From contig JBBUGM010000006.1 in the NCBI GenBank assembly GCA_038077975.1, positions 4,905-68,904 of the forward strand: 64,000 bases of DNA, written 5' to 3'. The notes under the pieces were generated by a model. It was not told the origin of the DNA. It saw nothing but the letters and a program-made list of their open reading frames with translations, and searched no databases. Made by a program: the position numbers and the translations under genes. Below are positions 14,275 to 59,300 of the stretch, piece after piece. This DNA is from Patescibacteria group bacterium. Lineage in GTDB: Bacteria; Patescibacteriota; Minisyncoccia; UBA6257; 2-01-FULL-56-20. Every line of letters begins with the position of its first letter. The stretch's first letter is position 1.

Positions 14275-15732
14275 ATGCAGTATTCGCCAACAATCGGCCT
14301 TGAGATACACGCGGAGCTCAAGACGCGGACAAAGATGTTCTGCGATTCTTTGAATGACCCGAATGAGAAGCACCCGAACACGAATGTTTGCCCGGTTTGT
14401 TTGGGGCATCCGGGTACGCTTCCCACGATAAATAAAGATGCCGTCCGGCACGTTCTTAAAGTCGGCCTAGCTTTGGGCGGGAAGATAAATCCGGTCACGA
14501 AATTCGACCGCAAGAATTATTTTTACCCCGACCTGCCGAAGGGATACCAAATTTCGCAATACGACCAGCCGCTTGTTTTGGGCGGGACTTTGAATGGTGT
14601 GCGCATAACAAGGGTGCATTTAGAGGAAGACACCGGTACATTAATACACCATGACAATAACGATGACAATGACAGAAAAAACAAAAGTCATAGTCATGGT
14701 CAAAAGTCATCGTACAGCCTTGTTGATTACAACAGGGCTGGAACCCCGCTTATGGAGCTTGTAACCGAGCCAGACTTGAAGTCGGCCGAAGAGGTCGTTG
14801 CTTTCGCAAAAGAGCTTCAGCTTATTTTGCGCTATCTCGGAGTTTCCGATGCCGACATGGAAAAAGGGCAGATGAGGATAGAAGCAAACGTGAGTATTAA
14901 CATGGGTACGAAAACGGAGCTCAAAAATATCAATTCGTTCAAGTTCGCCAAAGATGCGATCGAATACGAGATAAAGCGGCAGATCGAGGCCATGGAGGGC
15001 GGCCATGAGATTCGACAGGAAACTCGTGGCTGGGACGAAGCGAAGAAAAAAACCGTGAGCCAGCGCTCCAAAGAAGAAGCGCACGATTACCGCTATTTCC
15101 CCGAGCCGGATCTGCCGCCTTTCGAAACCGGCGCCTTTGATTTAGATAAATTACGGGTGGAAGTGCCGGAACTGCCGCAGGCGAAGCGAGCGCGCTTTAA
15201 AGAAGAATATGGGATCGACGAAAAGAAGGCGATGCTTTTGGCCGACGACCAAAAAACAGCAGAGTTTTTCGAGGAATATATTTCCGAACTCCAGAGTTTT
15301 TTGCCCGGAGCGAAGCCGGGCACAGGCGTGGATTATATTTTGAATGACCTCCGCGGCTTAATGGCCGAGTCCGGAGTGAATTTTGCCGATCTTAAAATCG
15401 AACCGGAGCACATTGCTCATCTCGAGGCCTTAATAAAAAAAGGCACGATTGGCAGCCGGCAGGCGAAAGACGTGCTCAAAAAAATGTTCGAAATCGGCGC
15501 CGACCCCGAGGACATCGTCCGTGACGAAGGGCTCGCCACGGTGAAGGACGAAGGCGAGATCAAATCCGTTATTGAAAGCGTCATTGTGGAAAATCCTTCC
15601 GCCGTCGCCGACTACAAAAAAGGCAAGGCGCAGGCGCTGCAGTTCTTGGTTGGCAAGGCGATGAGCAAGTTAAAGGGCAGGGGAGACCCCGGAAAGTTAA
15701 AAGAGATTCTTGAAAAGGCGCTAACGCAGTAG
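14275..15732 (+). CDS. gatB: Asp/Glu-tRNA(Asn/Gln) amidotransferase subunit B, with a low-complexity DNNDDNDRKNKSHSHGQ insertion
   Basis: GatB N-terminus MQYSPTIGLEIHAEL...CPVCLGHPGTLP; C-terminal GatB/YqeY helix. Confidence 0.9.
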   Translation: MQYSPTIGLEIHAELKTRTKMFCDSLNDPNEKHPNTNVCPVCLGHPGTLPTINKDAVRHVLKVGLALGGKINPVTKFDRKNYFYPDLPKGYQISQYDQPLVLGGTLNGVRITRVHLEEDTGTLIHHDNNDDNDRKNKSHSHGQKSSYSLVDYNRAGTPLMELVTEPDLKSAEEVVAFAKELQLILRYLGVSDADMEKGQMRIEANVSINMGTKTELKNINSFKFAKDAIEYEIKRQIEAMEGGHEIRQETRGWDEAKKKTVSQRSKEEAHDYRYFPEPDLPPFETGAFDLDKLRVEVPELPQAKRARFKEEYGIDEKKAMLLADDQKTAEFFEEYISELQSFLPGAKPGTGVDYILNDLRGLMAESGVNFADLKIEPEHIAHLEALIKKGTIGSRQAKDVLKKMFEIGADPEDIVRDEGLATVKDEGEIKSVIESVIVENPSAVADYKKGKAQALQFLVGKAMSKLKGRGDPGKLKEILEKALTQ

Positions 15733-15744
15733 TATGATGAGCGT

Positions 15745-16068
15745 ATGGCAAAAACAGCAGCTTCAAGCCCCATAACAGCGAAAGAAATAGTTGGCGTCAT
15801 ACTCCGCGACTACGGGCCGGTTGAAAAAGTTATTTTGTTTGGTTCGCGAGCAAGGGGGAATGCCGACGAATCAAGCGATCTCGACCTGATTGTCGTGAAG
15901 AATACCGACAAGCCGTTTGTACGACGATTGGTTGACGCCCCTTATTTTTCAATCCACTCCGACATATTTGTTTACACGCCCAAAGAATTTGAACAAATGC
16001 AAGAAAATGAGAACCCTTTTGTAATGAACGCGCTTGAGCACGGAGTTGTGTTGTATCCCGCGTCTTAA
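15745..16068 (+). CDS. minimal nucleotidyltransferase (MNT) antitoxin-like protein
   Basis: GSRARGNADESSDLDL pol-beta NTase motif, 107 aa. Confidence 0.75.
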   Translation: MAKTAASSPITAKEIVGVILRDYGPVEKVILFGSRARGNADESSDLDLIVVKNTDKPFVRRLVDAPYFSIHSDIFVYTPKEFEQMQENENPFVMNALEHGVVLYPAS

Positions 16069-16069
16069 C

Positions 16070-16480
16070 ATGAAAAATTCTTTTCTAAACGCTCGCCGCT
16101 GGCTGAGGCAGGCTGAATACGACTTTGAACAGGCAGAAAAATCATTTGACGACAAGTCGTACGCCTACGCCGCATTTTTCAGTGAGCAATCGGCACAAAA
16201 ATCACTAAAGGCAGCGCTTTTTAAGAGCGGGAAGCGGGCTATCACGATTCACTCGATTGCGGAACTGGCAAAAGAAGCCGCTGCTGTTGCGGACAAATCA
16301 TTTGCGGAACTTGTTGAAAGCGGCGCGCGGCTCGACAGGCACTACCTTGCCGCGCGTTACCCCGACGCTCTGCCCGAACCAGCCACCCCCTTCGAATCTT
16401 ATGTCGAACAAGACGCGGCAGAGGCGATAGCGTTTGCCCGCAAGATTCTCTCGGCCGCAAAGAAGTTTGTCGAGCGATAA
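16070..16480 (+). CDS. HEPN-domain protein (toxin partner of MNT)
   Basis: Immediately follows the MNT gene; HEPN-like helical protein of 136 aa from the internal ATG. Confidence 0.65.
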   Translation: MKNSFLNARRWLRQAEYDFEQAEKSFDDKSYAYAAFFSEQSAQKSLKAALFKSGKRAITIHSIAELAKEAAAVADKSFAELVESGARLDRHYLAARYPDALPEPATPFESYVEQDAAEAIAFARKILSAAKKFVER

Positions 16481-16500: not shown

Positions 16501-16632
16501 GCCGCCGCCGACTACAAAAAAGGCAAAGCGCAGGCCTTGCAATTCTTAGTGGGCAAGGCGATGAGCAAGTTAAAGGGCAGGGGAGACCCGGAGAAGTTGA
16601 GGGAATTACTAAAGAAACAGCTGGGGACATAG
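16501..16632 (+). pseudogene. orphan duplicate of the gatB 3' end (attR-like remnant)
   Basis: About 85% identical to 15601-15732 at an exact 900-nt offset; a 20-nt identical core gccgactacaaaaaaggcaa, then decaying identity, ending at an in-frame tag. Confidence 0.7.
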
Positions 16633-17045: not shown

Positions 17046-17168
17046 AGGTCGAATATTCATGGCTACGGCAACAACCGTAGCCATTTAGCTTATAAACGTT
17101 TGCCTTGCCTTTTGCGCGTCAGAGTGTAGCATCTAATCAGGAGCTTTGATACATTGAGGAGGTTAGCC

Positions 17169-17876
17169 GTGAAATTCCCGCATACGATAATTGATGCAGG
17201 CAGGGAGCGCCTTCAATCCTTTGAGGAATCTCTGAAAAAGATTAATCTTGCCGCTAGGGCGTCGCCGGATCGCCATGTTAAAACAGGGACGACCGTTGTG
17301 GCCTTTGTTAGTAAAGACGGACAAGTCGGCGTTATCGCGTCTGACGGTCGCATTTCGATGGGGACAATTTCTTTTAAGGAGGAATACAGGAAAATTTTCT
17401 CCTGTCGTATCGGCTTCGTCGGTGTTGCCGGTTCGTTGACCATGGTTCAGTTGGTCATGCCGAACTACAGATTGGACCTGAATAACTTTTGCGACGGGAG
17501 AAATCGTCTTGTTACCGCATCTGGCGCGGTCCACCGGCTTTTCCAGTATTATTTGCGTGCCGCACAACAGGAGGAAGGACAACTTGAATTACTGCCGCTT
17601 TTTTGGGATTTTGAAGAGAAGCAGTGCCGACTCTACGCGCTAGCGGGAATGTGTCACGTGAGAATGAATCACGCATGTGCGATCGGAAGCGGTGTTGGAG
17701 TAAATGGGCTGGATATTGACCGGCAATATACTCCGACGAATTCCAAAAGCCGTCTTATCGCCAATGCGCGCAAGTACATCATAAGGGCGTCTGCTAAAGA
17801 CGGCGCCACAAATCGCCACATTTTCTATGGAATTATAGATAAAGGGAAATTTGACGAAAAGGAGGAGGTGCTCTGA
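17169..17876 (+). CDS. prcB: proteasome beta subunit (Ntn hydrolase) with propeptide
   Basis: TG|TTVVAFVSKDGQVGVIASDGRISMG matches the beta N-terminus Thr1-Thr2 through D17 and K33 context; AGGAGG RBS then GTG start. Confidence 0.7.
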   Translation: MKFPHTIIDAGRERLQSFEESLKKINLAARASPDRHVKTGTTVVAFVSKDGQVGVIASDGRISMGTISFKEEYRKIFSCRIGFVGVAGSLTMVQLVMPNYRLDLNNFCDGRNRLVTASGAVHRLFQYYLRAAQQEEGQLELLPLFWDFEEKQCRLYALAGMCHVRMNHACAIGSGVGVNGLDIDRQYTPTNSKSRLIANARKYIIRASAKDGATNRHIFYGIIDKGKFDEKEEVL

Positions 17877-18619
17877 TGACCGGACTAGGCAGAGTGAACT
17901 ACGGCGCGTTTCTTGCGGACAAGAGAGCAGAGATTCTCAAACATTTGGAAGGATCTTTGCCGACAGTGATTGTCCCGACGTCAAGGGGCATCTATGTTTT
18001 TGCCGAGGAAATTGCTAAGGTCCATTCCACGATTTTGATCGCAGGCGCCGGAAGAATGCTTCCGTCCATTGCCGATTGGTATCGTGCCCAGATGACAGAC
18101 ATGGTTCAGGGCTGGAGTCCGCGCGAACCGAAAGCAAGCGCCGATGTCAATCTTCTGCAGCAGATTTTTTATCCGAACCTGAGCGTAGTGCCTGATGTTT
18201 TTCTGGCGGACCTTGTTCTTGTAGAAATTGGCGCGCAGAGAAGCAGCGACTACATTGCCCGCGTTGACGCTTTTTGCGAAATGAGCGATTTGAGCGACGA
18301 GAAAGTCGTCATAGTAAGTTATAGGGTCAGAAAAGAAAATGGCCACAACGATGACGAGAGCGTCGACGAGCCCGATACCCCATTATCAATAGAGGCCAGA
18401 AAGCAAGCGGAGGATGCCGTTAAAGCCGAGCGCGAAAACGAACTTAGATCTGAATTTTTAGATCTAGGCATGGCTTTGCCGGATAACATGGAAGAACGGC
18501 AAGGGGGAAAGGCAGGCCTTCTCAAGGCCCTAGAGGAGCAATATCCCGGTAAAGCCGTTTTACTCAGGCGCGATTTTGTCAGAAAAAAGGAGTTTGACTG
18601 GGTTTTTGAACCCCTGTGA
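17876..18619 (+). CDS. prcA: proteasome alpha subunit
   Basis: Pattern like actinobacterial PrcA (…SLPTVIVPTSRGIYVFAEE…ILIAGAGR…); TGATG overlap with prcB, GGAGGAGG RBS. Confidence 0.65.
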   Translation: MTGLGRVNYGAFLADKRAEILKHLEGSLPTVIVPTSRGIYVFAEEIAKVHSTILIAGAGRMLPSIADWYRAQMTDMVQGWSPREPKASADVNLLQQIFYPNLSVVPDVFLADLVLVEIGAQRSSDYIARVDAFCEMSDLSDEKVVIVSYRVRKENGHNDDESVDEPDTPLSIEARKQAEDAVKAERENELRSEFLDLGMALPDNMEERQGGKAGLLKALEEQYPGKAVLLRRDFVRKKEFDWVFEPL

Positions 18620-18625
18620 TAGTTT

Positions 18626-18658
18626 GTGCGGGCCCTCTTTTCGGGCCCGTTCTTTTTT
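18626..18658 (+). terminator. intrinsic terminator after prcBA
   Basis: gcgggccc-tcttttc-gggcccg followed by ttcttttttg. Confidence 0.55.
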
Positions 18659-18706
18659 GTTAGTATTGTGTTAGATGTTTGAACGCTTTGGTTATGGGAG
18701 GATGTG

Positions 18707-20389
18707 ATGCCGAGAGAAAATCCCGAAAGACAGCCGGAACTTAGCGCCCAAGAACTTTTGAATCGGCTGCGAAACTGCGAAGATGCATATGCCCGATCCG
18801 CTAGCGCGAACGATAAATTGGCCGAGTTGATTTTTAAACTTGCCCCGTTTAGAGAGCCGCCATACAGCTTGGCAGTTTTCGTTTCTCTGTCCGATATAAA
18901 CGACGGCAGGGAAGAAGGACTAAGAAGATCGCTCGCGTCGCTGGGGGTCGATTCACCCACGGACGGTTTTTCGAAGTGCTATCTTTTGCTGAATAACGGC
19001 GCCATGGCGATCGGCACGGTTGAAGATGAATTAGGAAGAGGCCTCAAGTCGGGACAAGTGGTTCTTGTAAGCGGCAACATGGGGGTTGTGGCCGCGGTTC
19101 CGGACGAAGAAATCAGGCATCTTAAAAGTGTTACGGTAGCGACCATCGAGCAAGTTGTGGACGATTTTATCCTGATTGACGACGGCGCCGGATATCGAGG
19201 CGGAGGCGTTGTTCTTTCTCCTCGTCTCCGGGAAGAGTTGGGGCGTAAACCTCTTGAGAACGGCGACAAAGTTCTGCTTTTTGGGAAATGTATTTTGCGC
19301 GTGCTTGAGAGACAGGAAAAGCGTATAGGTACGCTCGAGAAGGTGACGTTTGAGGATATCGGCGGCCTGGAAAAACAGGCGCAGGAAATCCGCGACCTTT
19401 TGGGCCTCGATTTCTCCGAGGAGCTTAAGCTCAAAATGAACAGAGAGTTTCCGCGGGGGGCGGTCCTTTACGGACCTCCCGGAAACGGCAAGACCCTACT
19501 TGCCCAAGTTTTGGGCAATGAGCTCGGATTTTTCATCGAGCTTGTCAGCGGTCCGGAAATAGAGAGTATGTGGGTTGGCGAAGGGCCGAAAATGATGAGA
19601 GCGAAGTTCGGGAGAGCCTATAAGAACAGGCCGTCTCTTCTGGTTTTTGACGAAGCTGATGTTCTTTTCCCGGTCCGCGGCGCCTCCGTTAGTGAGGGAT
19701 ACAAAACAGATTACCTTGCGCAGTTCAACGTTCTTATGCAGGGAGTTGAGAGTACCGCAGGCGTTTTCGTGCTTTTGCTGACGAATCGAGTTGACCGCAT
19801 TGATCCGGCAGCCATTCGAGCTGGGCGCGCGGATAAGAAAATTTTCATACCGCGTCCCGGTATGGACGGAGCCAAAAAAATCTTCTCGATCCATCTTAGG
19901 CGCTATCCTTTTGCCGGCGCGGATGACGATAAAACGAAAAGAAATCTCATGCGCGGACTTGCAGAGAAAGTGATCGAGGCAGTTTTCAGACGCGGGTCGG
20001 ATACACATCTTTTTACGGCTTTTCGCGGAACGGACGAGACAAGGTATTACATCAGAGATTTCGTTTCCGGAGCGCTGTTCAAAAATATAGCGGACGAGAT
20101 TTCTTTGCGCGCGATGAAGCGCCTTAAAGAGGATGGCACGGAAGCAGATTCTCCGCAGTGCGGTATCACAGAGATAGATGCGGACGGCGTTGCTGCCCAG
20201 GCGATCAGTAATGAGATACCGCGCGACGACGATTCGAGAAATCAATGGCTTTTAACGAACGGATATAAACCGGCAGACACATTTAGAAACGGTCCGGCTC
20301 TCGAGGACGAGAAAGAGCTGGCAAATCGCAGAAAAGTTATGATCCGCAGGCATGCAGTGAGGAAAACAAAGAAAAAGAGGCCCTCGTAA
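18707..20389 (+). CDS. ARC/Mpa-like AAA+ ATPase (proteasome-associated)
   Basis: N-terminal coiled coil, Walker A GPPGNGKT, Walker B LLVFDEAD; basic C-terminus lacking the usual GQYL tail. Confidence 0.7.
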   Translation: MPRENPERQPELSAQELLNRLRNCEDAYARSASANDKLAELIFKLAPFREPPYSLAVFVSLSDINDGREEGLRRSLASLGVDSPTDGFSKCYLLLNNGAMAIGTVEDELGRGLKSGQVVLVSGNMGVVAAVPDEEIRHLKSVTVATIEQVVDDFILIDDGAGYRGGGVVLSPRLREELGRKPLENGDKVLLFGKCILRVLERQEKRIGTLEKVTFEDIGGLEKQAQEIRDLLGLDFSEELKLKMNREFPRGAVLYGPPGNGKTLLAQVLGNELGFFIELVSGPEIESMWVGEGPKMMRAKFGRAYKNRPSLLVFDEADVLFPVRGASVSEGYKTDYLAQFNVLMQGVESTAGVFVLLLTNRVDRIDPAAIRAGRADKKIFIPRPGMDGAKKIFSIHLRRYPFAGADDDKTKRNLMRGLAEKVIEAVFRRGSDTHLFTAFRGTDETRYYIRDFVSGALFKNIADEISLRAMKRLKEDGTEADSPQCGITEIDADGVAAQAISNEIPRDDDSRNQWLLTNGYKPADTFRNGPALEDEKELANRRKVMIRRHAVRKTKKKRPS

Positions 20390-20458
20390 TGGGGGCCTCC
20401 TTTTATTTGCGGCAATGCCTTATAATGCAGATAGCATATTGATTCTAAGGAGAATAAG

Positions 20459-22000
20459 ATGGCGCTGATCATGGGTTCGGAAACGGAATTTGGACTGACT
20501 TCGCGCGGCAGAGCTGGCATCCACGATTTTTTATTCGAAATCGACAAACAGCGCGGCCCGGCGTTTACTTCAAGAAAAAGCGGTGAAGTTGCCGAGGCGG
20601 CAAAAAAATTGAATTGGTGGGGCGAGGATCTGTCTTTTGACGAAACAGTTGATAAGCGTGCGGGATTTGCGGATGTCGCTAGGCGCCTTGGCATGAGTGG
20701 AGATTATTTAAGCAACGGAGCTCGTTTTTACAGAGATTGCGGCCACCTGGAGTATTCTACGCCTGAATGCCGTAATCCGTGGGAATTGGTCGCTTACGAA
20801 AAGGCCGGCGAGGAGATCGTGCGTTTATGCGTCGCTCGCGCCGCGGAACGCCTCGGTTCGAAAGCAGATTTACTCAAAAGAAATGCCGATTATCATGACA
20901 GTTCTTACGCGTGTCATGCCAACTATCTTCTAAGCAGAAAGCTGTTCAATCTTCTGGTCCCGAGTTTTGATGTTGAAACCTTGGGAGCATCGGACTTTTT
21001 GAGTCGCGAGCAGGCCATTTGGACCGCGCACAACATCAGTATGCAGATATTTGCTGGCGCAGGGAGGATTGTCCCCGGCATTGCATGGCCGGATTGCTTT
21101 ATTCCTTCGCAGCGGCAGAAATTCATTACCCACTTTGCCGCCCTAGATACAACTCATGCGCGCAGTATCATTAATACCCGCGATAGACCCTATGCCGATC
21201 CGTCTCGGTTTGCGAGATTGCATGTAATTTGCTGCGACAGCAACAGGGCTGATTGGTCGAATATCTTGAAGTACGGCACGTCGTCCCTGGTTTTGGGAGC
21301 GCTTGAGGACTTCGCGGCATTAGAGAACGAAAGTTACGGTTATCTTACGCCGGCAAACGCGGTGCAAAGCTTCAGAAATCTCAAAGATAGAAATAGCCAG
21401 ATTGAAACTTCTGCTGGAATAATTACCGCTCTCGATATGCAGAGAAAAATCCTTGAATTTGCGGCTAATTGGCACCAAAAGCACGGGAAGCCCGGGTATG
21501 AATGGGCGCCGCTCCTTTTTGCCATGTGGAAAGAAATTCTTGATCTACTTGAGAGAGATGACGAAAAGTTGCGTATGCTACTCGATCGATATATCAAACA
21601 GAGGGTTTTTGAAAAAGGGTTTGGCAGTTCAGATCAAAACTCCCGGACGTTAAAGTCGTTAGAGCACAACTATCATCTCGTAGATCACAACTCTCTTTTC
21701 GGCCGATTAGAGAAGGAAGGACACGTTGATGTTGTTGTCGGGAGCGACGACGTAGAAGCGGCTTTTGCTTCTCCGCCGCCCACAAGAGCCAGCCTTCGTT
21801 GCAGATTACTCCGGTTTTTAAAGAAAAGATTCGAAGATGGTCGCGGGGTTGTGTCTTGGCACTCTTTGGGCTTCACCGATGGTCGCAGGAAAGTTTTTAT
21901 TTCACTTCCTGACCCTGCGTCAAGCCGCGCACATGAAATTTCCGAAGAGAAAAGTTCGTTTTCAGAGAGATTATTTTCTCGCAAAAGGATCTGGGGTTAA
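20459..22000 (+). CDS. PafA/Dop-family protein (Pup ligase or depupylase), paralog 1
   Basis: GSETEFG N-terminus and NGARFYRDCGHLEYSTPEC signature of the PafA/Dop carboxylate-amine ligase fold. Confidence 0.75.
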   Translation: MALIMGSETEFGLTSRGRAGIHDFLFEIDKQRGPAFTSRKSGEVAEAAKKLNWWGEDLSFDETVDKRAGFADVARRLGMSGDYLSNGARFYRDCGHLEYSTPECRNPWELVAYEKAGEEIVRLCVARAAERLGSKADLLKRNADYHDSSYACHANYLLSRKLFNLLVPSFDVETLGASDFLSREQAIWTAHNISMQIFAGAGRIVPGIAWPDCFIPSQRQKFITHFAALDTTHARSIINTRDRPYADPSRFARLHVICCDSNRADWSNILKYGTSSLVLGALEDFAALENESYGYLTPANAVQSFRNLKDRNSQIETSAGIITALDMQRKILEFAANWHQKHGKPGYEWAPLLFAMWKEILDLLERDDEKLRMLLDRYIKQRVFEKGFGSSDQNSRTLKSLEHNYHLVDHNSLFGRLEKEGHVDVVVGSDDVEAAFASPPPTRASLRCRLLRFLKKRFEDGRGVVSWHSLGFTDGRRKVFISLPDPASSRAHEISEEKSSFSERLFSRKRIWG

Positions 22001-22012
22001 AGGAGGCGAACG

Positions 22013-23533
22013 ATGGTCAGATATTTTGGCACGGAAAGCGAACACAACGTTTCTTATCGTTCGAAGGAGGGAAAGATCCATAATTCCGCCAACGACGGAC
22101 TTCTGTCGCGCAACCCGCCCACTTTAGCCGATACGGAAATTTTACTGTCGGACATTAGCCCGGGAGAGCTTGGGCGTGACATCTTTTTTAACCCGAGCAA
22201 TATTTGGCTTGCGAACGGAGGCAGGCTATACAAAGACGGAGCTCTTACGGAATATGCCACTCCCGAATGCCAAAGCGCAAAGGAGTTGGTTCTTGCCGAG
22301 ATGGCCGGAGACGAAATTGTGGCGCGCGTAGTGAACAAATTAGCCGATGCCAAAGACGTCTACGCCCTTAAAAGAAGCGCTTCGAAAGAAATGGATTTAA
22401 CGCGCGGAGCCCATGAAAGCTACGCGATTCCGGAGAGTTTTCACAAGGAGCTGATAACGGATATGACGTTGAGCCACCGCATTTTCAAGTTTTTTTCGGC
22501 CAGCCGTCAAACTTTTGCCGGAGCCGGCCACCTTGGTTATCTCGGGAGAGACAAGGTGTCTCATCTTATGTTCTGGGTCAGTCCTAGAATATACTTTATC
22601 GACCTTGAGCTGAATACTGGCACAGTAAGGAACACCGGGCGAGCTTTGGTAAACTCCCGTATTAAACCGCTTGTGGCGGGAAACCTCGAGGGGATGCAGA
22701 GGTTACACTGCATAGTCGGCGACATGAATCGGTCTCCGTGGTCGATTTATCTCAAAATAGGAGTCACGGTTTTGGTCTTGGAGTTTCTTCAACTCGTTAG
22801 TTATGAAGCGTTGAATCGTCTTGGCGGAAAGATGAAGTCGGACGGCACGTTGATTCACCGAGCGAAGGCAGCCACGCTTTTCCTAAACGACAATGCCCTG
22901 AAAGACGACTTTGATTTTTTACTCGATATCCAATACCGCTTAAGCGATGCGGTTTGGGGCATGAGGGAAGAGATTTCCGAAAGACACAATGAATTTGAAG
23001 AGATTTTTTCTTTATGGCGGGAAGCGTTGGATGCCGCGGCCTCTGAAGGCGTTGCGCGCAAGAAATTTGAGAAGCGGCTCGATTGGCTGATCAAAAGGAA
23101 GTTTATTCGCGAACTCGTCGGCGGAGAGATTCCTGCTTTGGACAAAATAGAACGAGGCGATAAATTGCGCAAATTACTTTCTTTCGACTTTGCGTATCAC
23201 CGGGTTAACCACAAAGACCTGTATAAATTTCTGGTTAAGTCGGGCGCCATTGAAGAGAAATATGCGGAAAGCGAAGCTGCGCATTATCTCTCTAGCCCTC
23301 CGGGAGGAAGGGCGAAAAGCCGCGTGTTGATTGCGAGACGAGCGCAGGAGTTAGGCATAGTGAGAAATATCACCGATTTTGACTGGGCAAGAATAGGTTT
23401 TATCCGGGATCTTCTGCCGCAGGCCGATTACGACAGAAGAGTGCCGCCGAGACGAGAAATAGCGTTTGACGACAGAAGCCCGGAAACGTTAAAATTACAC
23501 TTAGAAGATATATACAACTGGATTCGAGGGTGA
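22013..23533 (+). CDS. PafA/Dop-family protein, paralog 2
   Basis: GTESEHN N-terminus and NGGRLYKDGALTEYATPEC; GGAGG RBS. Confidence 0.75.
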   Translation: MVRYFGTESEHNVSYRSKEGKIHNSANDGLLSRNPPTLADTEILLSDISPGELGRDIFFNPSNIWLANGGRLYKDGALTEYATPECQSAKELVLAEMAGDEIVARVVNKLADAKDVYALKRSASKEMDLTRGAHESYAIPESFHKELITDMTLSHRIFKFFSASRQTFAGAGHLGYLGRDKVSHLMFWVSPRIYFIDLELNTGTVRNTGRALVNSRIKPLVAGNLEGMQRLHCIVGDMNRSPWSIYLKIGVTVLVLEFLQLVSYEALNRLGGKMKSDGTLIHRAKAATLFLNDNALKDDFDFLLDIQYRLSDAVWGMREEISERHNEFEEIFSLWREALDAAASEGVARKKFEKRLDWLIKRKFIRELVGGEIPALDKIERGDKLRKLLSFDFAYHRVNHKDLYKFLVKSGAIEEKYAESEAAHYLSSPPGGRAKSRVLIARRAQELGIVRNITDFDWARIGFIRDLLPQADYDRRVPPRREIAFDDRSPETLKLHLEDIYNWIRG

Positions 23534-26420: not shown

Positions 26421-26495
26421 GTCATTGCCCGACTAGATCGGGCAATCCAGTTTCGTATTTACATTTTAGATTCTCGGATCGAGTCCGAGAATGAC
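26421..26495. repeat. two-hairpin MITE/REP-like element, copy 1
   Basis: GTCATT-gcccga-ctagatc-gggcaATCC, a 21-nt spacer, then GATTctcgga-tcgag-tccgagAATGAC; hairpin B supplies the last 11 codons of miaA. Confidence 0.5.
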
Positions 26496-27649
26496 AGAGA
26501 GAATTTTTTCACCAACGACTCGGCCTCCTTCTCGCTTTTTATCCAATTTATCCTTTTGTCTTTTCTGAACCACGTCATCTGCCGCTTGGCGTAGGCCCAG
26601 GTATTTTGTTTGATTTGTTTTGCAACTTCCTGCGGAAGCGCCGATTTATGCTGATTTGGCTGATTTATGCTGATCTCTTTAAGAGGCACCGATTGCTCAA
26701 AAATGTTATTTCCTGAGTGGGTCGAAGGATAACATTTTTGAACGCCGCCCTTCGATAAACTCAGGGAAGAATAGCATCCTGCCGCAAGATAATCGATGAT
26801 CTCGCGATAACCAATCGTGTTTATAAGTACCGACGTCCTGCCGTACTTGTTGAGCAATTCTTGCACTTCTTTTACGAGTCCAGCGCGGATCATTTCGTCC
26901 ACGCGGCTTTCTATTCTCTGCCGCAGTTTTACGGGCGGCAATTTTACTCCAAGTTCAAGCGCGTCAAAAAGCGGTTCGCCTTTTTTCCGCTGGGCAGTAA
27001 AGGGTTTTCCGGTTTGGATGGCAACCTCTAGCGCGCGCACGACACGGCGGGGATTTTTGAGGTCAACTATGTAAGCCGCTTCCGGGTCCAGTTTCAAGAG
27101 TTCTTCGGCAACGGAATCTAATCCTTTCTTCTCTATTCTCTCTTTTATCTCCTTGCGTAGCTTCGGATCCGCCTTGACTTCCGGTATGTCTAAATTCTCA
27201 ACGATCGCTTTTACATAAAGTCCCGTGCCGCCAACGAGTATCGGCAGTTTGCCGCGCCGCAATATGCCGCGGATGGCGCGCAAGGCGTCGCGTTTGTAAT
27301 CTGCGAGTGAGTATTCTTCGTCCGGATTTTTGATGTCGATAAGATGATGTGCTATCTTGCTCTTTGCGATTTGCGCTTTGCCCTTTGCGGTGCCGATATC
27401 CATCCCGCGGTATATTTGCCTTGAATCCGCAGAGACAATCTCCCCATTGAATTTTTTGGCGAGCTTAAGCGCGAGTGCGGATTTGCCGCTTGCCGTGGGG
27501 CCCACGATAACCAGTATTTTTGGCAAGGATTTTGTGGCGCGGCGACTCGATGAAGCCAAAAATGCTATTTCCTGAGCTGGTCGAAGGATGGTATTTTTGG
27601 CGGTACCCTTCGACAAGCTCAATGGATGAAAATTACTCGTGTTTGACAT
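26459..27649 (-). CDS. miaA: tRNA dimethylallyltransferase carrying repeat-derived in-frame insertions
   Basis: P-loop GPTASGKS, DSRQIYRGMDIGTAK, YAKRQMTWFR. About 90 aa longer than typical MiaA because of two in-frame copies of a 69-nt palindromic repeat plus a 15-nt microduplication; N-terminal start uncertain. Confidence 0.75.
   Translation of the reverse strand: MSNTSNFHPLSLSKGTAKNTILRPAQEIAFLASSSRRATKSLPKILVIVGPTASGKSALALKLAKKFNGEIVSADSRQIYRGMDIGTAKGKAQIAKSKIAHHLIDIKNPDEEYSLADYKRDALRAIRGILRRGKLPILVGGTGLYVKAIVENLDIPEVKADPKLRKEIKERIEKKGLDSVAEELLKLDPEAAYIVDLKNPRRVVRALEVAIQTGKPFTAQRKKGEPLFDALELGVKLPPVKLRQRIESRVDEMIRAGLVKEVQELLNKYGRTSVLINTIGYREIIDYLAAGCYSSLSLSKGGVQKCYPSTHSGNNIFEQSVPLKEISINQPNQHKSALPQEVAKQIKQNTWAYAKRQMTWFRKDKRINWIKSEKEAESLVKKFSLSFSDSIRESKM
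26698..26766. repeat. 69-nt palindromic repeat, copy A (inside miaA, in frame)
   Basis: aaaaatgttatttcctgagtgggtcgaagg...cccttcgataaactcaggg with inverted arms; encodes the ...SLSLSKGG... insert. Confidence 0.6.
27558..27625. repeat. 69-nt palindromic repeat, copy B (miaA 5' region / N-terminal extension)
   Basis: aaaaatgctatttcctgagctggtcgaagg...cccttcgacaagctcaatgg, about 80% identical to copy A. Confidence 0.6.
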
Positions 27650-27671
27650 AGTTCTTCTTTTCCGCTATAAT
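27643..27671 (+). promoter_or_regulatory. consensus sigma70 promoter TTGACA-N17-TATAAT
   Basis: Perfect -35 and -10 hexamers; drives the small plus-strand gene and overlaps the annotated miaA ATG. Confidence 0.55.
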
Positions 27672-27707: not shown

Positions 27708-27902
27708 ATGAAACGATTCGGATATTTTTTGATGGCAGTGGCTGCTGTTGTGGGCATAGGGTTTGCCGCCAGGCAAATTGCGCGTTTCCGCGACGAGCGC
27801 GACGCGCGCTTGTTGCTGGATCTTCATGACGAAGAGGAGAAAGAGGATGAAAACCTCTTCATGGCCCGTCGTGCAGAGATGCGGCCCCGCTGGATCATGT
27901 AA
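27708..27902 (+). CDS. small membrane protein (64 aa)
   Basis: AAGGAG RBS 8 nt upstream of ATG; one TM helix then a charged tail. Confidence 0.5.
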   Translation: MKRFGYFLMAVAAVVGIGFAARQIARFRDERDARLLLDLHDEEEKEDENLFMARRAEMRPRWIM

Positions 27903-32508: not shown

Positions 32509-33747
32509 ATGGCAAAAGTTTTAACAAAAACACACAGAACGTGGATTGAAATCGATTCGCGGGCGGCGAAGAAGAATTATGATACGTTTCGGAAGTTGAT
32601 CGGCCCTGTTCGACCCCTTCGACAAGCTCAGGGTATAAAAGCTCAGGGCAAGCGCGGAACGCAATTGTGGTCTGTTGTGAAGTCGAATGCCTACGGGCAC
32701 GGGATAGTCGTTTTTTCGAAATTAGCCGACCGCTTAGGGGTCAATGGTTTTTGCGTTGATTCTTTGGTTGAGGGAATTCGTCTGCGCAAAGAAGGAATTA
32801 AAAAGCCGATCTTGGTTCTGGGCCCGACCTTGCCGGCACTACTTCACGAAGCGGCGAAAAGGAAAATAACGATCACAATTTCCAATTTTGATTCTTTGAA
32901 AGTATTAACATCGATTGTAGCTAAAAAAGCTACAATCGACGGAGTGCCGGAATTTCATTTGAAGATCGATACCGGCATGCACCGCCAAGGGTTCTACCTC
33001 GCGGATTTACCAAAGGTTCTTAAATCCCTAAATTCTAAATCCTCAATCCTAAATTCTCGTTTGCGGGGCATCTACACCCACTTCGCTTCGGCAAAAGACA
33101 CGAATTACCCGACTTATACCGAAAAACAATTCGCCGAATTCCAAAAAGCGATAAAGCTTTTCGAAGACGCCGGTTTTCCCGCCGAAGGCGGGTCCGCCTC
33201 TGGCGGAAAGAATTCCATTACCGTCCATTGCGCGGCAACAGGCGGGACACTCGTGAACCCAAAATATCATCTCGATGCCGTGCGAGTTGGCATCGGACTT
33301 TACGGATTATGGCCGTCAAAAGAACTGGAGGTCCAGCTCGGCCGCAAAATCAAACTCTATCCGGTTTTATCATGGCGAGCTGTTGTGAGCGAGGTGAAAA
33401 ATTTGGAGGCAGGGGATTATATTGGTTACGACCTCGTTGAACGCGCCCCGCGGCCGATGAAAATGGCCGTGATCCCCGTTGGCTACTGGCACGGATTGCC
33501 GCGTTCGCTCTCCGGCATCGGTGAAGTGCTTATAAATGGCCGCCGCGCGAAAATTCTTGGCCGCATTTCGATGGACCTCATCGCCGTGGGGCCGGTTACG
33601 GGTGTAAAGCCGGGGGATATCGCGACTTTCATCGGTAAAGACGGCAAAGAAAATTTTCTCGCATTCGACGTCGCGGCGCGCGGCGGCACTATCCACTACG
33701 AACTCTTAACGCGACTTAATCCCTTAATCGAGCGCATCATCCAATAG
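32509..33747 (+). CDS. alr: alanine racemase with two repeat-derived in-frame insertions
   Basis: PLP-lysine motif VVKSNAYGHG and C-terminal racemase domain. Insert 1 (32598-32640) matches one arm of the miaA 69-nt repeat. Insert 2 (33001-33060) is the CTAAATTCTAAATCC AT-rich repeat. Confidence 0.85.
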   Translation: MAKVLTKTHRTWIEIDSRAAKKNYDTFRKLIGPVRPLRQAQGIKAQGKRGTQLWSVVKSNAYGHGIVVFSKLADRLGVNGFCVDSLVEGIRLRKEGIKKPILVLGPTLPALLHEAAKRKITITISNFDSLKVLTSIVAKKATIDGVPEFHLKIDTGMHRQGFYLADLPKVLKSLNSKSSILNSRLRGIYTHFASAKDTNYPTYTEKQFAEFQKAIKLFEDAGFPAEGGSASGGKNSITVHCAATGGTLVNPKYHLDAVRVGIGLYGLWPSKELEVQLGRKIKLYPVLSWRAVVSEVKNLEAGDYIGYDLVERAPRPMKMAVIPVGYWHGLPRSLSGIGEVLINGRRAKILGRISMDLIAVGPVTGVKPGDIATFIGKDGKENFLAFDVAARGGTIHYELLTRLNPLIERIIQ

Positions 33748-33934: not shown

Positions 33935-34771
33935 TTGGACTTTATGCCAAAAGCAGATGTTTATGTCCCCGACGGCCGCGGCGAGCGCAGAAAAAAGCGC
34001 TTTATTTTTGTCATTGTCATGGTCATTGTCACCGCGTATCTCTCGGTCCTTGCCGCCGGCTGGCTGATTTTGCGTAATCCGGTTTTCCGCATCCAAAATG
34101 TCGAAGTTGTCGGCAATATCGATGTCTCGGGCGAAAGAATAAAAGGAGTTGTTCTTTCGCGCATTGTACGCGGAAGTTTTTGGCGGGCCTTGATTGGCAT
34201 CAACAATGTCCTCATCTGGCCGGAGCGTTTAAGCGCGGAGGACCTCGTTTTTTTACCGGAAGTGAAGAGCGTGGAACTAGAGAAAGATTACGCATCGCGA
34301 AGCGTTTTAATAAACGTTGACGAACGCAAACCGCGCGGCATCTGGTGTCTTGCCTCGCCGCCCGTAGGCGATAACTGTTGGTGGTTCGATGACGCTGGCG
34401 TGCTTTTCCGCCGCGCAATATTCGCCGAAGGAAGCTTGATCACTGTTGTTGTTGACTACTCCCAGGAAAATTTCGGCCTGGGATACAAGATCTTACCGGA
34501 GGAATTCATTGATAATGCCTTTTCCGTTTTCGATGTCGTGCGTAGTAGCGGATTAAGAATCAAAGAGGTACGCCTAAACGACCTTGAACTTGAAGAGGTG
34601 GAGGTTTTGACTTTCGACGGTCCGCGCGTTTTGTTCAGCTTACGTTTTCCGTCCGTTAACGCGCTCGAGGTTATACAAAAATTATTTTCCGCCAAAGGCG
34701 GATCCGCCCCTGGCGGGAAAGATTTGGATTATTTGGATTTCAGAGTGGAAAACAGGGTATACTATAAATAG
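33935..34771 (+). CDS. FtsQ/DivIB-like cell-division protein (TM plus POTRA)
   Basis: Short cytoplasmic tail, one TM, then a POTRA-like segment VFRIQNVEVVGNIDVSGERIKGVV. Confidence 0.55.
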   Translation: MDFMPKADVYVPDGRGERRKKRFIFVIVMVIVTAYLSVLAAGWLILRNPVFRIQNVEVVGNIDVSGERIKGVVLSRIVRGSFWRALIGINNVLIWPERLSAEDLVFLPEVKSVELEKDYASRSVLINVDERKPRGIWCLASPPVGDNCWWFDDAGVLFRRAIFAEGSLITVVVDYSQENFGLGYKILPEEFIDNAFSVFDVVRSSGLRIKEVRLNDLELEEVEVLTFDGPRVLFSLRFPSVNALEVIQKLFSAKGGSAPGGKDLDYLDFRVENRVYYK

Positions 34772-37786: not shown

Positions 37787-38425
37787 ATGGTTGTCCTCGA
37801 CAATCTGCCAAAAAATACGCGGGGCGCCCTCGAAAAACTTGCCGGCGCCGCTTTTATAAAAAAATTTTATCTTGCCGGCGGCACGGCCGCGACGCTTTTT
37901 TTTAGACACCGGGAATCCAAAGACCTCGATTTCTTTTCCGAGGACCATTTTCGGACACCAACACTTATTAGACACCTCGCGAAAATCGGCTCATTCGTTA
38001 CTACTAAAACCGCAGAAGATACGCTAGAAGGCAGATTTGAAAAAGTAAAAATTAGCTTTTTCACGCTTCCATACAAATTGCTCGAAAAATCGCTCAAGTA
38101 CAAAAATATGCGCATTGCTTCCCTGGTTGATATTGCGACGATGAAAATTCTTGCCATATCTGATCGCGGTACGCGGCGCGATTTTATAGATCTTTACTGT
38201 CTGGCTACGCGGGTAAAGCCGCTCGACAAACTACTTCTCGATTTTGAGAGAAAATTCGGGAAATACGACTACAATTTACACCACATCATCGCAAGCTTAA
38301 CTTATTTCAAGGACGCAGAGGAGGAACCGATACCGCATCTTTATATCGATCTTGAGTGGAAGAATGTTAAGAGGTTTTTTTTACACGAAAAACCGCTTCT
38401 TGCAAAGAAGTTTTTGATTGGATAG
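37787..38425 (+). CDS. AbiEii/DUF1814-like nucleotidyltransferase toxin
   Basis: YLAGGTAATLFFRHRESKDLDFF nucleotidyltransferase motif. Confidence 0.7.
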   Translation: MVVLDNLPKNTRGALEKLAGAAFIKKFYLAGGTAATLFFRHRESKDLDFFSEDHFRTPTLIRHLAKIGSFVTTKTAEDTLEGRFEKVKISFFTLPYKLLEKSLKYKNMRIASLVDIATMKILAISDRGTRRDFIDLYCLATRVKPLDKLLLDFERKFGKYDYNLHHIIASLTYFKDAEEEPIPHLYIDLEWKNVKRFFLHEKPLLAKKFLIG

Positions 38426-44979: not shown

Positions 44980-45552
44980 ATGGAGCTAACCAGTCAGGAA
45001 AAAATTCTGATTGATGTAGCAAGAACGCTTGAAAAGCTACACCTCCCGTATTTTGTTACAGGTGGTTTTGCGGTTTCTCTCTGGGGTCGCCCTCGAGCCA
45101 CTTTTGACGTGGACATCGTGATTCAGCTTATGAACTCGGATATCAATCCACTTGCTAAGGCGCTAAAAGAAGTTTCTAAATTGGGTTACATAGACGAAGA
45201 CATGATGAAAGACGCTGTCAAATGGCACCGAGAATTTAATTTCATTGATCCGGAAAGCGGCATGAAGGTGGATTTTATGGTTAGTCCCAATGACGAGTTC
45301 TCCCGTTCAAGATTTAAACGGAAGAGCGCGAAAGAAATCGGTGGACAGCAAGTATATTTTACATCACCGGAGGACTTGATATTGAGCAAACTCTTATGGC
45401 AAAAGGAATCCGGCTCCGAATTGCAGCTTAGAGATGTGGAATCGATCATCAAAATTTCTGGTCGTAAGCTCGACAGGTCTTATTTGGAAGAATGGGCAAG
45501 AAAATTGGGCGTTTGGGATGTTTTGGACGGCATTTTAGAAGACGCGGCATAG
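44980..45552 (+). CDS. predicted nucleotidyltransferase-fold protein
   Basis: YFVTGGFAVSLWGRPRATFDVDIVI NTase-like core; preceded by a small overlapping ORF (about 44838-45014). Confidence 0.45.
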   Translation: MELTSQEKILIDVARTLEKLHLPYFVTGGFAVSLWGRPRATFDVDIVIQLMNSDINPLAKALKEVSKLGYIDEDMMKDAVKWHREFNFIDPESGMKVDFMVSPNDEFSRSRFKRKSAKEIGGQQVYFTSPEDLILSKLLWQKESGSELQLRDVESIIKISGRKLDRSYLEEWARKLGVWDVLDGILEDAA

Positions 45553-49815: not shown

Positions 49816-49916
49816 TGTCATTCTCGGACTTGATCCGAGAATCCAGACAATGCCCTTCGGGACACACGTCTTCGACTGCGGCCATGGACTAGATTCCCGC
49901 TTTCGCGGGAATGACA
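49816..49916. repeat. two-hairpin MITE/REP-like element, copy 3 (longest)
   Basis: tGTCATTctcgga-cttgatc-cgagaATCC, 42-nt spacer, GATTcccgc-tttc-gcgggAATGACa; terminal inverted repeats GTCATT / AATGAC. Confidence 0.55.
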
Positions 49917-56327: not shown

Positions 56328-59300
56328 ATGCGCAGAATTCTAGTTTTGTCGGTCATGTTTTTGGCGCTTGGTTTATCTTTTCTGCCTCGCGGCGCGGATG
56401 CGTTTTCCTTTTCTAATCTCCGCGCGGAAAATATTTATGGGCCTGGCGCGCAGATAAAGTGGACGACAGATGAGTCGGGAGATTCGAAAGTGTATTACGG
56501 GACATCGCCCGGCAACTACCCTAATCACGCAGCGGGGGATTGCCTTTCACCAAGCTCTCCGGTTTTTGAACACTGCGTTAATTTAACAAACCTCGCAGCG
56601 AGTACAAAATATTATTATGTTGTTAAAACCACTGTTGCCTCCGGCAGTTATCCAGAGTACACCTCCGAAGAGAAAAATTTTGATTCAGCAACATCCTCTT
56701 CGACTTCAACCAGTACCTCAACAGGTACATCTCCACCTGCGGCGCCTTCTGGGTTTATAGCGGCTCTTTCCGGAAATGACGTAAAGCTCGACTGGCAAGA
56801 CAATTCGAGCGACGAATCGGATTTCAAGATATTCCGAAGGCCGCAGGGTGGCATTTGGGCTTTTATTATATCTCTTAGCCAAAACGTAACTTCTTTTACG
56901 GAGTTTGGTTTTGCGGTTAATTTCTCGCCGGGAACTTATGAGTATCATGTTAACGCCTGCAATCCGGCCGGTTGCTCTCCCGACTCGAATATCGTCTCCG
57001 TTAGCATTGGGGGCGCACCTCCATCAACAACCACGACAGAGGCGACTTCGTCTCAACCCACTGCGCAGACGACCGTCGTCTCCGGCATCGCTCTCGACCC
57101 AATCGGTAAAGCGGTTGCGGGCGCGGGTGTCAGAATTTTTAAAGAGGACTTCAGCAGAAATTATGGGATCTTAAGCGGGGCGGATGGTTCTTGGAAAATC
57201 AGCGGCGTCGAAGCCGGCAATTATTGGCTTGAAGCCATGCCTCCGCCGGAGAGAACAGAACTTTCGCGCGCGGAACCATTTAGATTTAGCATTTCAGACA
57301 ACGAAACAAAGGTGTTCACCTTAAAATTCGTCGGCACAAGCAAGAATGTTTCGGGAGCCGCCTCTTTCTCCGACGGCACTCCCATCTCGGATGCCGAAGT
57401 CGGCGCCTATTCAAGTGAAACGAAGCAATGGAAGAGCGTTTTTGTTGACTCCGGTGGCAGATATAACTTGGCTTTGAGTGGCGGCATTTGGCAGTTGGGC
57501 ACCCGGCCGCGCGATCCCGCGAGCGCAAAGTGGTCGTGGAACGGGCCTTTTTCTGAAGTGGTTTTTGCGGATGACATAACTCCAGAGAGCCGCACGGTCA
57601 ACTTCGTCATACCGATTTCCGACTCCAAGGTCATCATCAGTGTGCGCGACGAGGCGGGTAAACCATTGGAAGGCGCGGGGATAATGCTCGATACTTTGAG
57701 CGCAGGCGATCAATCGTCCCTGCGTCCACCGCCGGATTACAAAAAAAGCGATGCCCAGGGCCTCGCGACTTTCCTTGCTAGAGCCGGGACATATTACCTC
57801 CGCGCATTCCTTCCTTCCGAATTAGGATACCTGAATCCGGAAGAGCAAAAGATATCTATTCTGTCTGGCGAAACAAAAGACATCGCATTCGTTTTCCGCC
57901 GGCCGACGCTTTTTGAAACAGTCAAGGTTTTCGGCACGACAAAAATTTCCGGCGTCGGACCTGTCGACGCATTCGTTTGGGCATGGTCGGAGAAAGGTGG
58001 AAACGTTAACTTGCGGGCAAGCGCCGGGGGAGAATTCATCGCCGTGCTTCAGCGGGGCGACAAATGGAGGATAGGAGCAGGCAAGGAAGAGAACGGCATT
58101 CCGTATAAATCCGGAGAGATAATTTTAGACACTTCCCAGCCGGTGGGTTTGGTTGAGCTCATACTCGAAAGGTACGGTTTGGAGGCATTGCCGCCGCCGG
58201 TTTCTACAAGTCAGTCGGCAACCAAAGAGATATTTGTGCAAACCGCCGATGGCGCCGAGGTGAGAATTCCGCCGTCCGCCGCGGGGACGAGCGGCACGGT
58301 CAGTGTTGAGATCACGCCAACGATCGAGGCGCCGTCCCAGCCGGCAGCGAAGGTTGTAAGCACCGTCTACGAAGTAACCATAAAAGACAGCGCCGGCACG
58401 AACATAGAAACATTGCAGGATGAAACGGAAATAGTTATTCCCTACGATCCGGAAGTATTGAAAGATCAGGGCATTACGGAAGACGCGGTTGTCCCTAGTT
58501 TCTTCGACGAGTCGACTGGTGTATGGGTGAAAGTAGAGAGTTATACAGTTGATAAAATTCGCAAAGTTTTCATTTTGCGCGTCACGCACCTGACGATATT
58601 TGCCCTTGTTGCCGCGGCGGACACAACGCCGCCTAACCCCCCGACGAACGTGACTGCATCGTATGGCACGGATGGATCAATCGTTATTTCGTGGATAAAC
58701 CCCACTGCCGATTTCAGCCATGTGAGAGTTTATCGCTCAACGGAAAGAGGATTCTTGGGCGACGTAATCGCGACGAACCTCAAAAAGAATACGCTTACAG
58801 ACATAAATGTTACAAAGGGGGTTGTTTATTACTATGTCGTGCGCGCGGTTGATCCGGCTGGTAACGAGACATCGAACAAGAACCAGGTCGTGATCGAGGC
58901 GACGCAAACTTTATCCGTGCCGCAAGGAGCAATCGCAAAGCTCGAAATATTGCGCAACCTTTCCGCGGGCTCGTCGGGCGAGGACGTTAAAGCGCTTCAG
59001 AGTTTGCTTCTCGCCGAAGGCGTCTATCCCCAAGGCCTAATCACCGGATTTTTCGGGGAACTTACTCGCCAGGCAGTTATCAGATTTCAGGAGAAATACG
59101 CGGACGAGGTTTTAGCTCCTGCGGGGCTCACTTCCGGCAATGGTTTTGTCGGGCCGCTCACGCGTAAAAAAGTGAATGCGCTTACCCTTGGTGCGGCCGC
59201 GCCGGCCGCGGAAGCCCCTCCCGCAGAGACGCCTCCACAAGCTCCTCTGGGACAGGCAACCAAAGCAGAAATTTTGCGCGACCTTACGGTCGGTTCGACG

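Follow-up and report, generated by a model that had tools for sequence, protein, structure and literature searches.

Why does a housekeeping gene of a gene-dense bacterium carry two copies of a palindromic repeat within its open reading frame? This question is raised by miaA in a 64,000-nucleotide stretch of Patescibacteria contig JBBUGM010000006.1 (positions 4,905 to 68,904, hereafter the window), for which an initial annotation had described a 69-nt palindromic repeat inserted twice in miaA and, as a half-copy, in alr. We consider it probable that the miaA repeats are diverged cores of a non-autonomous, dispersed family of nested palindromes, a selfish DNA similar to repetitive extragenic palindromes (REPs) and to transposable elements of the miniature inverted-repeat kind (MITEs) and behaving like the Rickettsia palindromic elements (RPEs). 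The window derives from Hainich groundwater (well H43, 0.1-um fraction) and the contig, 180,597 bp long, has a coverage of 13. The open reading frame (ORF) that hosts the repeats encodes MiaA (Pfam IPPT, 1.4e-73), and a protein named MiaA from a Patescibacteria metagenome-assembled genome (MAG) at NCBI is identical to it. Since assemblies of several Hainich samples contain the miaA DNA with 0 differences (six loci, covering 11 contigs), an assembly artefact was ruled out as the origin of its repeats. The host gene and the two copies, scored with a covariance model (R1), are as follows.

26459..27649, minus strand: miaA ORF of 396 aa (about 300 aa in homologues), host of copies A and B.
26695..26774, plus strand: copy A, a nested-hairpin repeat core (R1 73.8 bits, E 1.5e-13), which miaA reads antisense as SLSLSKGGVQKCYPSTHSGNNIFE.
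Parts of copy A: a, 26699-26709; TTCC; b, 26714-26728; a', 26729-26740; spacer; b', 26748-26765; GGGAAGAATA.
27554..27632, plus strand: copy B, the second core copy (R1 69.8 bits), 79% identical to copy A.

The two copies were found where they had been described (26698-26766 and 27557-27625), with 55 of 70 positions identical (79%, about 80% having been reported), and both are contained in the 396-aa ORF, whose frame reads them as ...SLSLSKGGVQKCYPSTHSGNNIFE... and ...PLSLSKGTAKNTILRPAQEIAFL..., with 'LSLSKG' common to both. The inverted arms also exist, but their order is interleaved (a-b-a'-b') and not nested. The layout shared by the two copies consists of a (AAAAATGYTAT), TTCC, b (TGAGYKGGTCGAAGG), a' (ATRRYATTTTT), a spacer of 7-9 nt and b' (CCTTCGAYAARCTCA). 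A unit of 69 nt turned out to be too small, the core measuring 85 nt and other copies reaching about 110-120 nt with their outer arms. Clear outer arms were not seen in copies A and B, whose terminal inverted repeats are unconvincing; a candidate outer arm of copy A (GAGGCACCGATTG vs. TAATCGATGATCTC) was dropped, its right arm being the conserved MiaA codons for EIIDY. When the 17-mer CCTTCGACAAGCTCAGG was searched in the window with up to 3 mismatches, 6 matches were obtained as compared to 0.17 expected; four of them fall in miaA, one, exact, in alr (32616-32632) and a weak one at 36057. The 19-mer of the a-b junction gave 2 matches as compared to 0.02 expected, and R1, run over the whole window with no filters, retrieved only copy A, copy B and a partial match in alr.

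The status of the two copies as inserts was analyzed by aligning MiaA with 22 homologues, of which the closest are 57-68% identical and about 300 aa long. Three segments are extra in the window protein: about 40 residues at the N-terminus (copy B), about 50 residues in the middle (copy A) and a short C-terminal tail. The middle segment is located between 'IGYREIIDYL' and '(L)xEAVxxIKxNTW', where the flanking helices are conserved, and in DNA terms it spans 111 nt in the window as compared to 12 nt in the nearest relative (P0003), i.e. a net 99 nt (33 codons) more.

26648..26773, minus strand: composite insert, MiaA residues 293-334, made of copy A and half of an older repeat; absent from, or different in, the 22 homologues.

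In an AlphaFold2 model built on the homologue alignment, the core of MiaA has pLDDT values (the per-residue confidence of the prediction) of 85-95, and residues 1-20, 34-38 and 293-334 have values below 50 and no secondary structure, the last of these segments being flanked by helices 281-294 and 339-362. The MiaA inserts therefore fall, in the model, in permissive surface or loop segments, with pLDDT below 50 between confident helices. Because homologues are without the segment and keep the neighbouring helices, copy A is a true in-frame insert within the body of MiaA, in a loop predicted to be disordered.

The same alignment that upheld copy A as an insert placed copy B outside the conserved protein. 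Copy B had been taken as an insert into MiaA as well, but it lies upstream of the P-loop and has no counterpart in the homologue alignment, being contained in the 43-codon stretch from the ATG at 27649 to the conserved P-loop. It could equally be an N-terminal extension or a 5' leader, the latter if the TTG at 'LPKILVIVGP' is the start. A promoter-like site for miaA (TTGCCA-17-TATTAT with an extended -10, TG; 27695-27667, minus strand) ends 18 nt before the ATG at 27649; since this putative site is upstream of copy B, it places the whole of copy B in the miaA transcript. N-terminal REPs may be untranslated, as the authors of a REP survey caution (PMC3733652). A divergent promoter-like site, a perfect TTGACA-17-TATAAT for a small plus-strand gene at 27709, overlaps the first one (27643-27671, plus strand), and the -35 hexamer of this second site shares bases with the start codon annotated for miaA.

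Of the three gene-sense frames of copy A, a single one is free of stops, and this is the frame in use. Copies A and B are read in the same frame across b' ('LSLSKG') and in different frames across b and a ('YPSTHSGNNIF' vs. 'ILRPAQEIAFL'), because their spacers differ by 1 nt. It follows that the peptide is not what is conserved, and the encoded sequences (CYPSTHSGNNIFEQSVPLK and the N-terminal MSNTSNFHPLSLSK, as predicted from the ORF) appear to be a by-product of the DNA repeat. This bears on the possibility that the repeats are co-opted protein modules, i.e. flexible linkers or interaction peptides kept for their amino acid sequence. In its favour, 'YPST(S/H)SGNN(V/I)' recurs in MiaA, Fmt and a glycosyltransferase, and the same MiaA loop holds inserts in many lineages. 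However, the recurring peptide is the sole open frame of the DNA motif, the frames of A and B differ, the inserts are predicted to be disordered, most copies are non-coding and protein-level searches give no family, so that we regard this explanation as extremely improbable. A profile of four translated copies, run against 5.8 billion proteins, gave 6 candidates with one weak match (P0121), and when the 41-aa MiaA insert was compared by phmmer with 1.84 billion representatives, the single match was an unrelated repetitive protein (P0122); the translated copies are too short and too variable in frame for protein searches.

At the DNA level, at least 30 further copies were found in metagenome contigs, mostly intergenic. 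Scanning these contigs with the b motif (TTTCCTGAGNNNGTCGAAGGAT) gave at least 120 loci, and among the matches listed about 27 distinct loci have the interleaved architecture of the window copies. The full unit consists of outer arms X...X' and, in order, a (gccaaaaaKtta), TTTCC, b, a' (taaMtttttggc), a spacer and b'. The loop of the a:a' hairpin is TTTCC-TGAGCYTGTCGAAGG-AT, which holds b, and b' reads CCCTTCGAC[variable]GCTCAGGG and is followed by AATAA. Many metagenome copies have outer inverted arms, such as GAGACNGT...ACNGTCTC and TTGAATTACGAAA...TTTCGTAATTCAA. With R1, a score of at least 60 bits was reached by about 30 copies in the fetched loci, and in L209, L138 and L233 these include a second copy on one contig.

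These matches also bear on a local origin, by segmental duplication or gene conversion within miaA, in which the likeness to other loci would be due to the shared b motif alone. Both full copies of the 64 kb are indeed in one gene, separated by 859 bp and in the same orientation, and they share a GG variant (GGTCGAAGG) that the other family members do not have. Nevertheless, the identity of the two copies is no higher than 79% and their flanking sequences are not related, and the whole-element matches elsewhere, at 60-92 bits, extend beyond b to the a arms, the layout of the spacer and the AATAA tail. A local event is therefore a very unlikely explanation. The private GG variant is also the reason why a composite pattern (TATTTCCTGAGNNGGTCGAAGGAT) gave 0 matches in GTDB representatives, since it made the pattern too specific.

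The family shows clear stem covariation. In an alignment of 23 copies, 86.5% of the cells are paired as compared to 72.1% after shuffling, and changes on both sides occur in 12 of 17 pairs, a value reached in 0 of 500 shuffles; the signal is lost when the partner columns are slid. The closing stem of b' varies as CCCT/AGGG, CCCC/GGGG and GCCT/AGGC, with no unpaired case, and one copy has the compensatory pair GTCGTTGG in b and CCAACGAC in b'. The minimum-free-energy fold is the long b:b' hairpin; compensatory changes are present in both a:a' and b:b', and therefore the local hairpins and the long b:b' helix have both left traces. The fold z-scores are listed here for the two strands.

Copy A: -3.8 (plus strand), -3.5 (minus strand).
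Copy B: -2.4 (plus strand), -3.1 (minus strand).
Full element in L132: -6.5 (plus strand), -7.2 (minus strand).

Over 104 copies, 133 G:T and 126 A:C mismatches were counted, with no strand bias. Since both strands fold equally and the mismatches are balanced, there is no pointer to RNA or DNA as the level at which the structure acts. An alternative explanation is that the repeat functions as a structured RNA whose structure is under selection (it might stabilise mRNA, serve as a site of processing or pausing, or be an RNA of the antisense strand), the copies inside genes acting in cis on the expression of miaA, fmt and alr. The strong stem covariation and the significant fold z-scores agree with it, and so do two G:T wobbles on the plus strand in a:a' of copy B, the position of this copy just downstream of the promoter-like site, where it could be a leader, and the fact that many REPs have been argued to act as RNA (PMC3733652). 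On the other hand, Rfam 15 gave no match at gathering score for the window and 8 canonical loci, only noise (miRNA models, and RF02901 at 16-31 bits with a cut-off of 97). The lack of strand bias and the equal folding of the strands also speak against an RNA, as do the unrelated contexts in which copies are found (intergenic, N-terminal, mid-gene and near gene ends); moreover, no T-tract terminator was seen after copy A or copy B. On this evidence we consider a functional RNA unlikely.

Most of the 21 copies outside the window are closed in all six frames, or open for a few codons, and are located between ORFs. Copies inside ORFs were found in a methionyl-tRNA formyltransferase gene (L227, 'FPELVEGLPTEKSEHYPSTSSGNNVL') and in a glycosyltransferase gene (L239, 'SPELVEGPYKKRYPSTSSGNNVFE'), and all the in-gene copies, that is, these two and the two of miaA, are antisense to the a-b-a'-b' orientation. 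In the sense orientation the three frames contain the stops TGA (in TGAGC), TAA (in GGATAA) and TAA (in AATAA). Any open frame is available in 5 of 21 copies in sense and in 14 of 21 in antisense; the antisense is the permissive orientation, as it usually leaves a frame free of stops. Five of the loci (L227, L171, L163, L239 and L154) share the well and the size fraction of the window, with coverage of 13-19, and are the closest to it in tetranucleotide composition (r of 0.91-0.95, the next best being 0.85). They probably represent further contigs of the population that the window comes from, or of a sister population. Intergenic copies number three in this set, and in-frame copies four.

If the miaA repeats are dispersed selfish DNA, as we propose, copies would insert largely regardless of position, in a genome with a coding fraction of about 90%. 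The coding fraction of the window is about 0.90, and therefore most insertions must land in genes. Selection would then purge every copy that breaks the frame or the fold, and the survivors would be those that are stop-free, in the permissive orientation and in surface loops or termini, hence their neat in-frame appearance. Spreading might occur by hairpin-dependent (single-strand) transposition or by copy-paste through a trans-acting enzyme encoded elsewhere, as proposed for REPs and their RAYT transposases. We infer mobility, and with it a hairpin-dependent enzyme acting in trans, because no pair of empty and filled sites was available at nucleotide resolution, the closest MiaA being only about 61% identical. 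This is a first point against our interpretation, and others have to be set beside it. By eye, no target-site duplication was seen at the borders in L132, L134, L184, L206 and L224, and no transposase domain, including RAYT, was detected in 30 scanned ORFs of the window. Just 2 full copies are present in 64 kb, both in one 1.2-kb gene, which under random insertion would be an event of about 2%. Furthermore, a functional RNA would account for the stem covariation just as well, and a:a' and b:b' both have compensatory changes, yet they cannot fully co-form.

A 15-nt microduplication had been reported next to copy A, and a direct repeat is present (GCYGATTTATGCTGAT twice at 26640-26674; 16 nt, 94% identical), but it belongs to a separate, older palindromic repeat that is shared with homologues.

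26633..26674, minus strand: right half of the older palindromic repeat (ATCAGCATAAATCAG / CCAAATCAGCATAAATCGG; peptide ISINQPNQHKSALP).

This half is identical to the DNA of P0003 at 34 of 36 nt, with proteins that are about 61% identical. The full stacked palindrome (GCNGATAAANGCNGAT units) is found at the same MiaA loop in P0004 and P0005, and also in P0036 and others. Copy A occupies the place of the left half of the older element, which points to an insertion of one repeat into another. The loop after 'IGYREIIxYL' holds differing palindrome-derived inserts in many Patescibacteria (ADKRRLK..INAD or ISINQ..HKSA; homologues P0003-P0005, P0018, P0020, P0023, P0036, P0037 and P0043, and loci L248 and L249), and this loop, which has been a repeated target in different lineages, is a permissive site or a recurrent hot spot. 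Other inserts in MiaA homologues lie before 'AFDAIGY' (P0006, P0037) and after 'GTAK'. A third type of repeat is found at the end of the gene.

26421-26447, plus strand: CGTC/TGTC-tagged REP-like hairpin.
26469-26495, minus strand: the same.
49817-49843, plus strand: the same.

These hairpins (GTCATTGCCCGACTAGATCGGGCAATC; GTCATTCTCGGACTYGATCCGAGAATC, two copies identical at 26 of 27 positions) match the layout of the CGTC super-family (PMC3733652). The extra tail at the C-terminus of MiaA (...SFSDSIRESKM) is encoded by the hairpin at 26469-26495; the miaA ORF thus holds sequence from three different repeat families, and the hairpin at 26421-26447 follows directly downstream.

The insert of alr is indeed in frame and based on the shared motif, but it is not half a copy of the miaA repeat; it is a complete member of another sub-family, with the pattern TTCGAC twice and then AAGCTCAGGG twice.

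32509..33747, plus strand: alr ORF of 412 aa (Pfam Ala_racemase_N and Ala_racemase_C), which carries the stacked half-site insert and a second palindromic insert.
32605..32652, plus strand: Alr N-terminal insert, about residues 33-48 (PVRPLRQAQGIKAQGK), a stacked half-site element.
33179-33206: tandem hairpins CCGCC-NNN-GGCGG x2, in alr; a further palindromic family.
34689-34716: tandem hairpins of the same family, in ORF 33935-34771.

The DNA of the N-terminal insert reads GTTCGAC-CCCTTCGAC-AAGCTCAGGG-TATAAAAGCTCAGGG-CAAG, i.e. two left half-sites followed by two right ones, and R1 matches it partially (32594-32641, 24.5 bits, E 0.004). When Alr was aligned with racemases of the PDB, query residue 51 or so corresponded to chain residue 31-36 approximately, and Alr has about 17 extra N-terminal residues. 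The same stacked half-site element is also in frame in the C-terminal domain of the fmt gene of L227, where it has an extra hairpin at its centre; a stretch of 31 nt is 100% identical to that of alr. The tandem hairpin family gave 4 matches as compared to 0.19 expected. In Alr it is translated as EGGSASGGK, an 11-residue insert with respect to the PDB racemases, in ORF 33935-34771 (no Pfam match) as KGGSAPGGK, and in the MiaA of another Patescibacterium (P0005, L248) as KGRSASGGK.

The half-site motif extends far beyond this lineage. In GTDB contigs, with one genome per species, the exact 17-mer CCTTCGACAAGCTCAGG gave at least 120 matches, while about 70 are expected by chance in 596 Gb. Among the matches listed, the hosts belong to Proteobacteria, Bacteroidota, Chloroflexota, Cyanobacteria, Actinomycetota, Nitrospirota, NC10, Planctomycetota, Acidobacteriota, Verrucomicrobiota and several lineages of the candidate phyla radiation (CPR). 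The consensus reaches past the query (GCCCTTCGACAAGCTCAGGGCGAACGG), an inverted partner is present within 120 nt in 58 of 132 occurrences (44%), and stacked half-sites, (TTCGAC)n...(GCTCAGG)m, occur at many loci. It is possible, although on balance doubtful, that the half-site pair CCTTCGAC|AAGCTCAGG forms the core of a class of ultra-small repeats, hairpins or half-sites, that is pan-bacterial and undescribed. If so, conservation across phyla would imply either that the enzyme which mobilises the motif is very widely shared or that a universal host factor recognises it, and the a-b-a'-b' element of Patescibacteria would be one elaboration of the half-site core, specific to its lineage. The stacked arrays look like products of repeated self-insertion or half-site slippage, and the motif may pass as whole units between unrelated genes, as the inserts of Alr in the window and of Fmt in L227 suggest. 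The peptides FDKLRANG, LSLSKH and PELVEG presumably occur in many hypothetical proteins. A full-text search of a paper library found no paper that contains the motif or its peptides, and the supplements of the REP survey are without the motif; the cross-phylum core, with its stacked half-site architecture, could be the part that is new in kind.

Two other ideas on the 17-mer were rejected. As the loop of a variable stem it does not hold in general, only 9 of 132 occurrences having 7 or more paired flanking bases. A link to tRNA or tmRNA, considered for L016 and L067, was discarded on the ARAGORN results, as the motif only abuts tRNA-Glu in L016 and no call was made in L067. At positions 4440-4530 of L067, a Vulcanimicrobiota MAG, the 17-mer stands directly 5' of a tRNA/tmRNA-like T-arm and acceptor end (GGTTCGATTCCCGTTGGCGCTACCA), which may be a decayed or interrupted tRNA-like gene.

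Further features of the window were recorded. A Pup-proteasome-like cluster (17154-23533) comprises, side by side, the genes of a proteasome subunit (PF00227), an unassigned ORF, an AAA ATPase gene and two genes of the Pup-ligase family; Pup_ligase genes also adjoin miaA on L241, the contig of the nearest MiaA relative. ORFs similar to toxin-antitoxin or defence genes (HEPN, AbiEii-toxin-like and DUF6036 nucleotidyltransferase) are located at 16034-16480, 37787-38425 and 44980-45552. The coding end of the GatB C-terminus is duplicated around the HEPN gene (direct repeats 15601-15698 and 16501-16598, 90% identical), and a 1060-aa ORF (56328-59510) contains an internal direct repeat of 186 nt (58944-59453, 77% identical, with a spacing of 324 nt), presumably a repeat of the protein.

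As regards the meaning of these results, Patescibacteria, whose genomes are the smallest and most gene-dense among bacteria, carry several families of palindromic, probably selfish repeats, translated inside housekeeping enzymes. Such repeats may account for many odd low-complexity inserts and 'hypothetical' peptides of CPR proteins (LSLSKG, PELVEG, FDKLR, LRQAQGK, GGSASGG) and may flag over-long N-termini in annotation. Together, R1 and the 17-mer offer a handle on what mobilises a motif common to most bacterial phyla, for which no named family was found. Repeats that colonise genes without breaking the frame had been called unusual, and this was an overstatement: REPs and RPEs that lie in frame within genes have been recorded in Rickettsia, Opitutus, Thauera and others (PMC10969869; PMC3733652). 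As for Patescibacteria, no paper that combines RPEs with this group was found, and a literature search for MITEs and CPR returned only one irrelevant paper; in-frame palindromic repeats are thus known elsewhere and apparently had not been reported in this group.

Three known systems are close to the present element. MITEs such as Correia/NEMIS and the QMITE of Coxiella (PMC10969869; PMC5896051) are, like it, non-coding, about 100 bp long and multi-copy, with occasional in-frame fusions, and many family copies have terminal inverted arms (clear, for example, in the fold of L132). In contrast to MITEs, no target-site duplication and no parent insertion sequence with matching ends were found, and the window copies are without clear outer arms. 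REPs (Di Nocera et al., 2013, PMC3733652), including the REP/RAYT 'REPtrons', share with it short hairpins, often as inverted dimers, with compensatory stem changes, and a location that is mostly extragenic and sometimes in frame, even twice per ORF, with N-terminal cases perhaps untranslated. GTAG and CGTC REPs are in frame in Opitutus, Thauera, Xanthomonas and others, sometimes two per ORF and often in tRNA-related enzymes, and a dedicated transposase is not known for CGTC REPs either (PMC3733652). However, copies A and B start with CAAAAATG and carry neither GTAG nor CGTC as a terminal tag; an AT-first stem of 8-9 bp with a loop of 4-5 nt and a CCA tail is also missing from the a-b-a'-b' element. 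The hairpins at 26421-26447, 26469-26495 and 49817-49843, on the contrary, are CGTC-type REPs and are separate from it.

In its behaviour the element resembles RPE-1 to RPE-10 (Ogata et al., 2000, reviewed in PMC10969869), palindromic repeats that are in frame inside genes. The RPEs differ in their host, Rickettsia and not Patescibacteria, and are restricted to their genus, whereas the core 17-mer of the present element is found in many phyla and its hairpins are interleaved (a-b-a'-b'). The likeness is therefore functional. Both are dispersed palindromic repeats of about 100-150 bp that lie in intergenic DNA and in frame in unrelated housekeeping genes of a small, gene-dense genome, where they give rise to surface-compatible peptide inserts. 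Copies of the present element were found between genes and also, in frame, within MiaA, Fmt and a glycosyltransferase, and it is by this behaviour that we set the element beside the RPEs.

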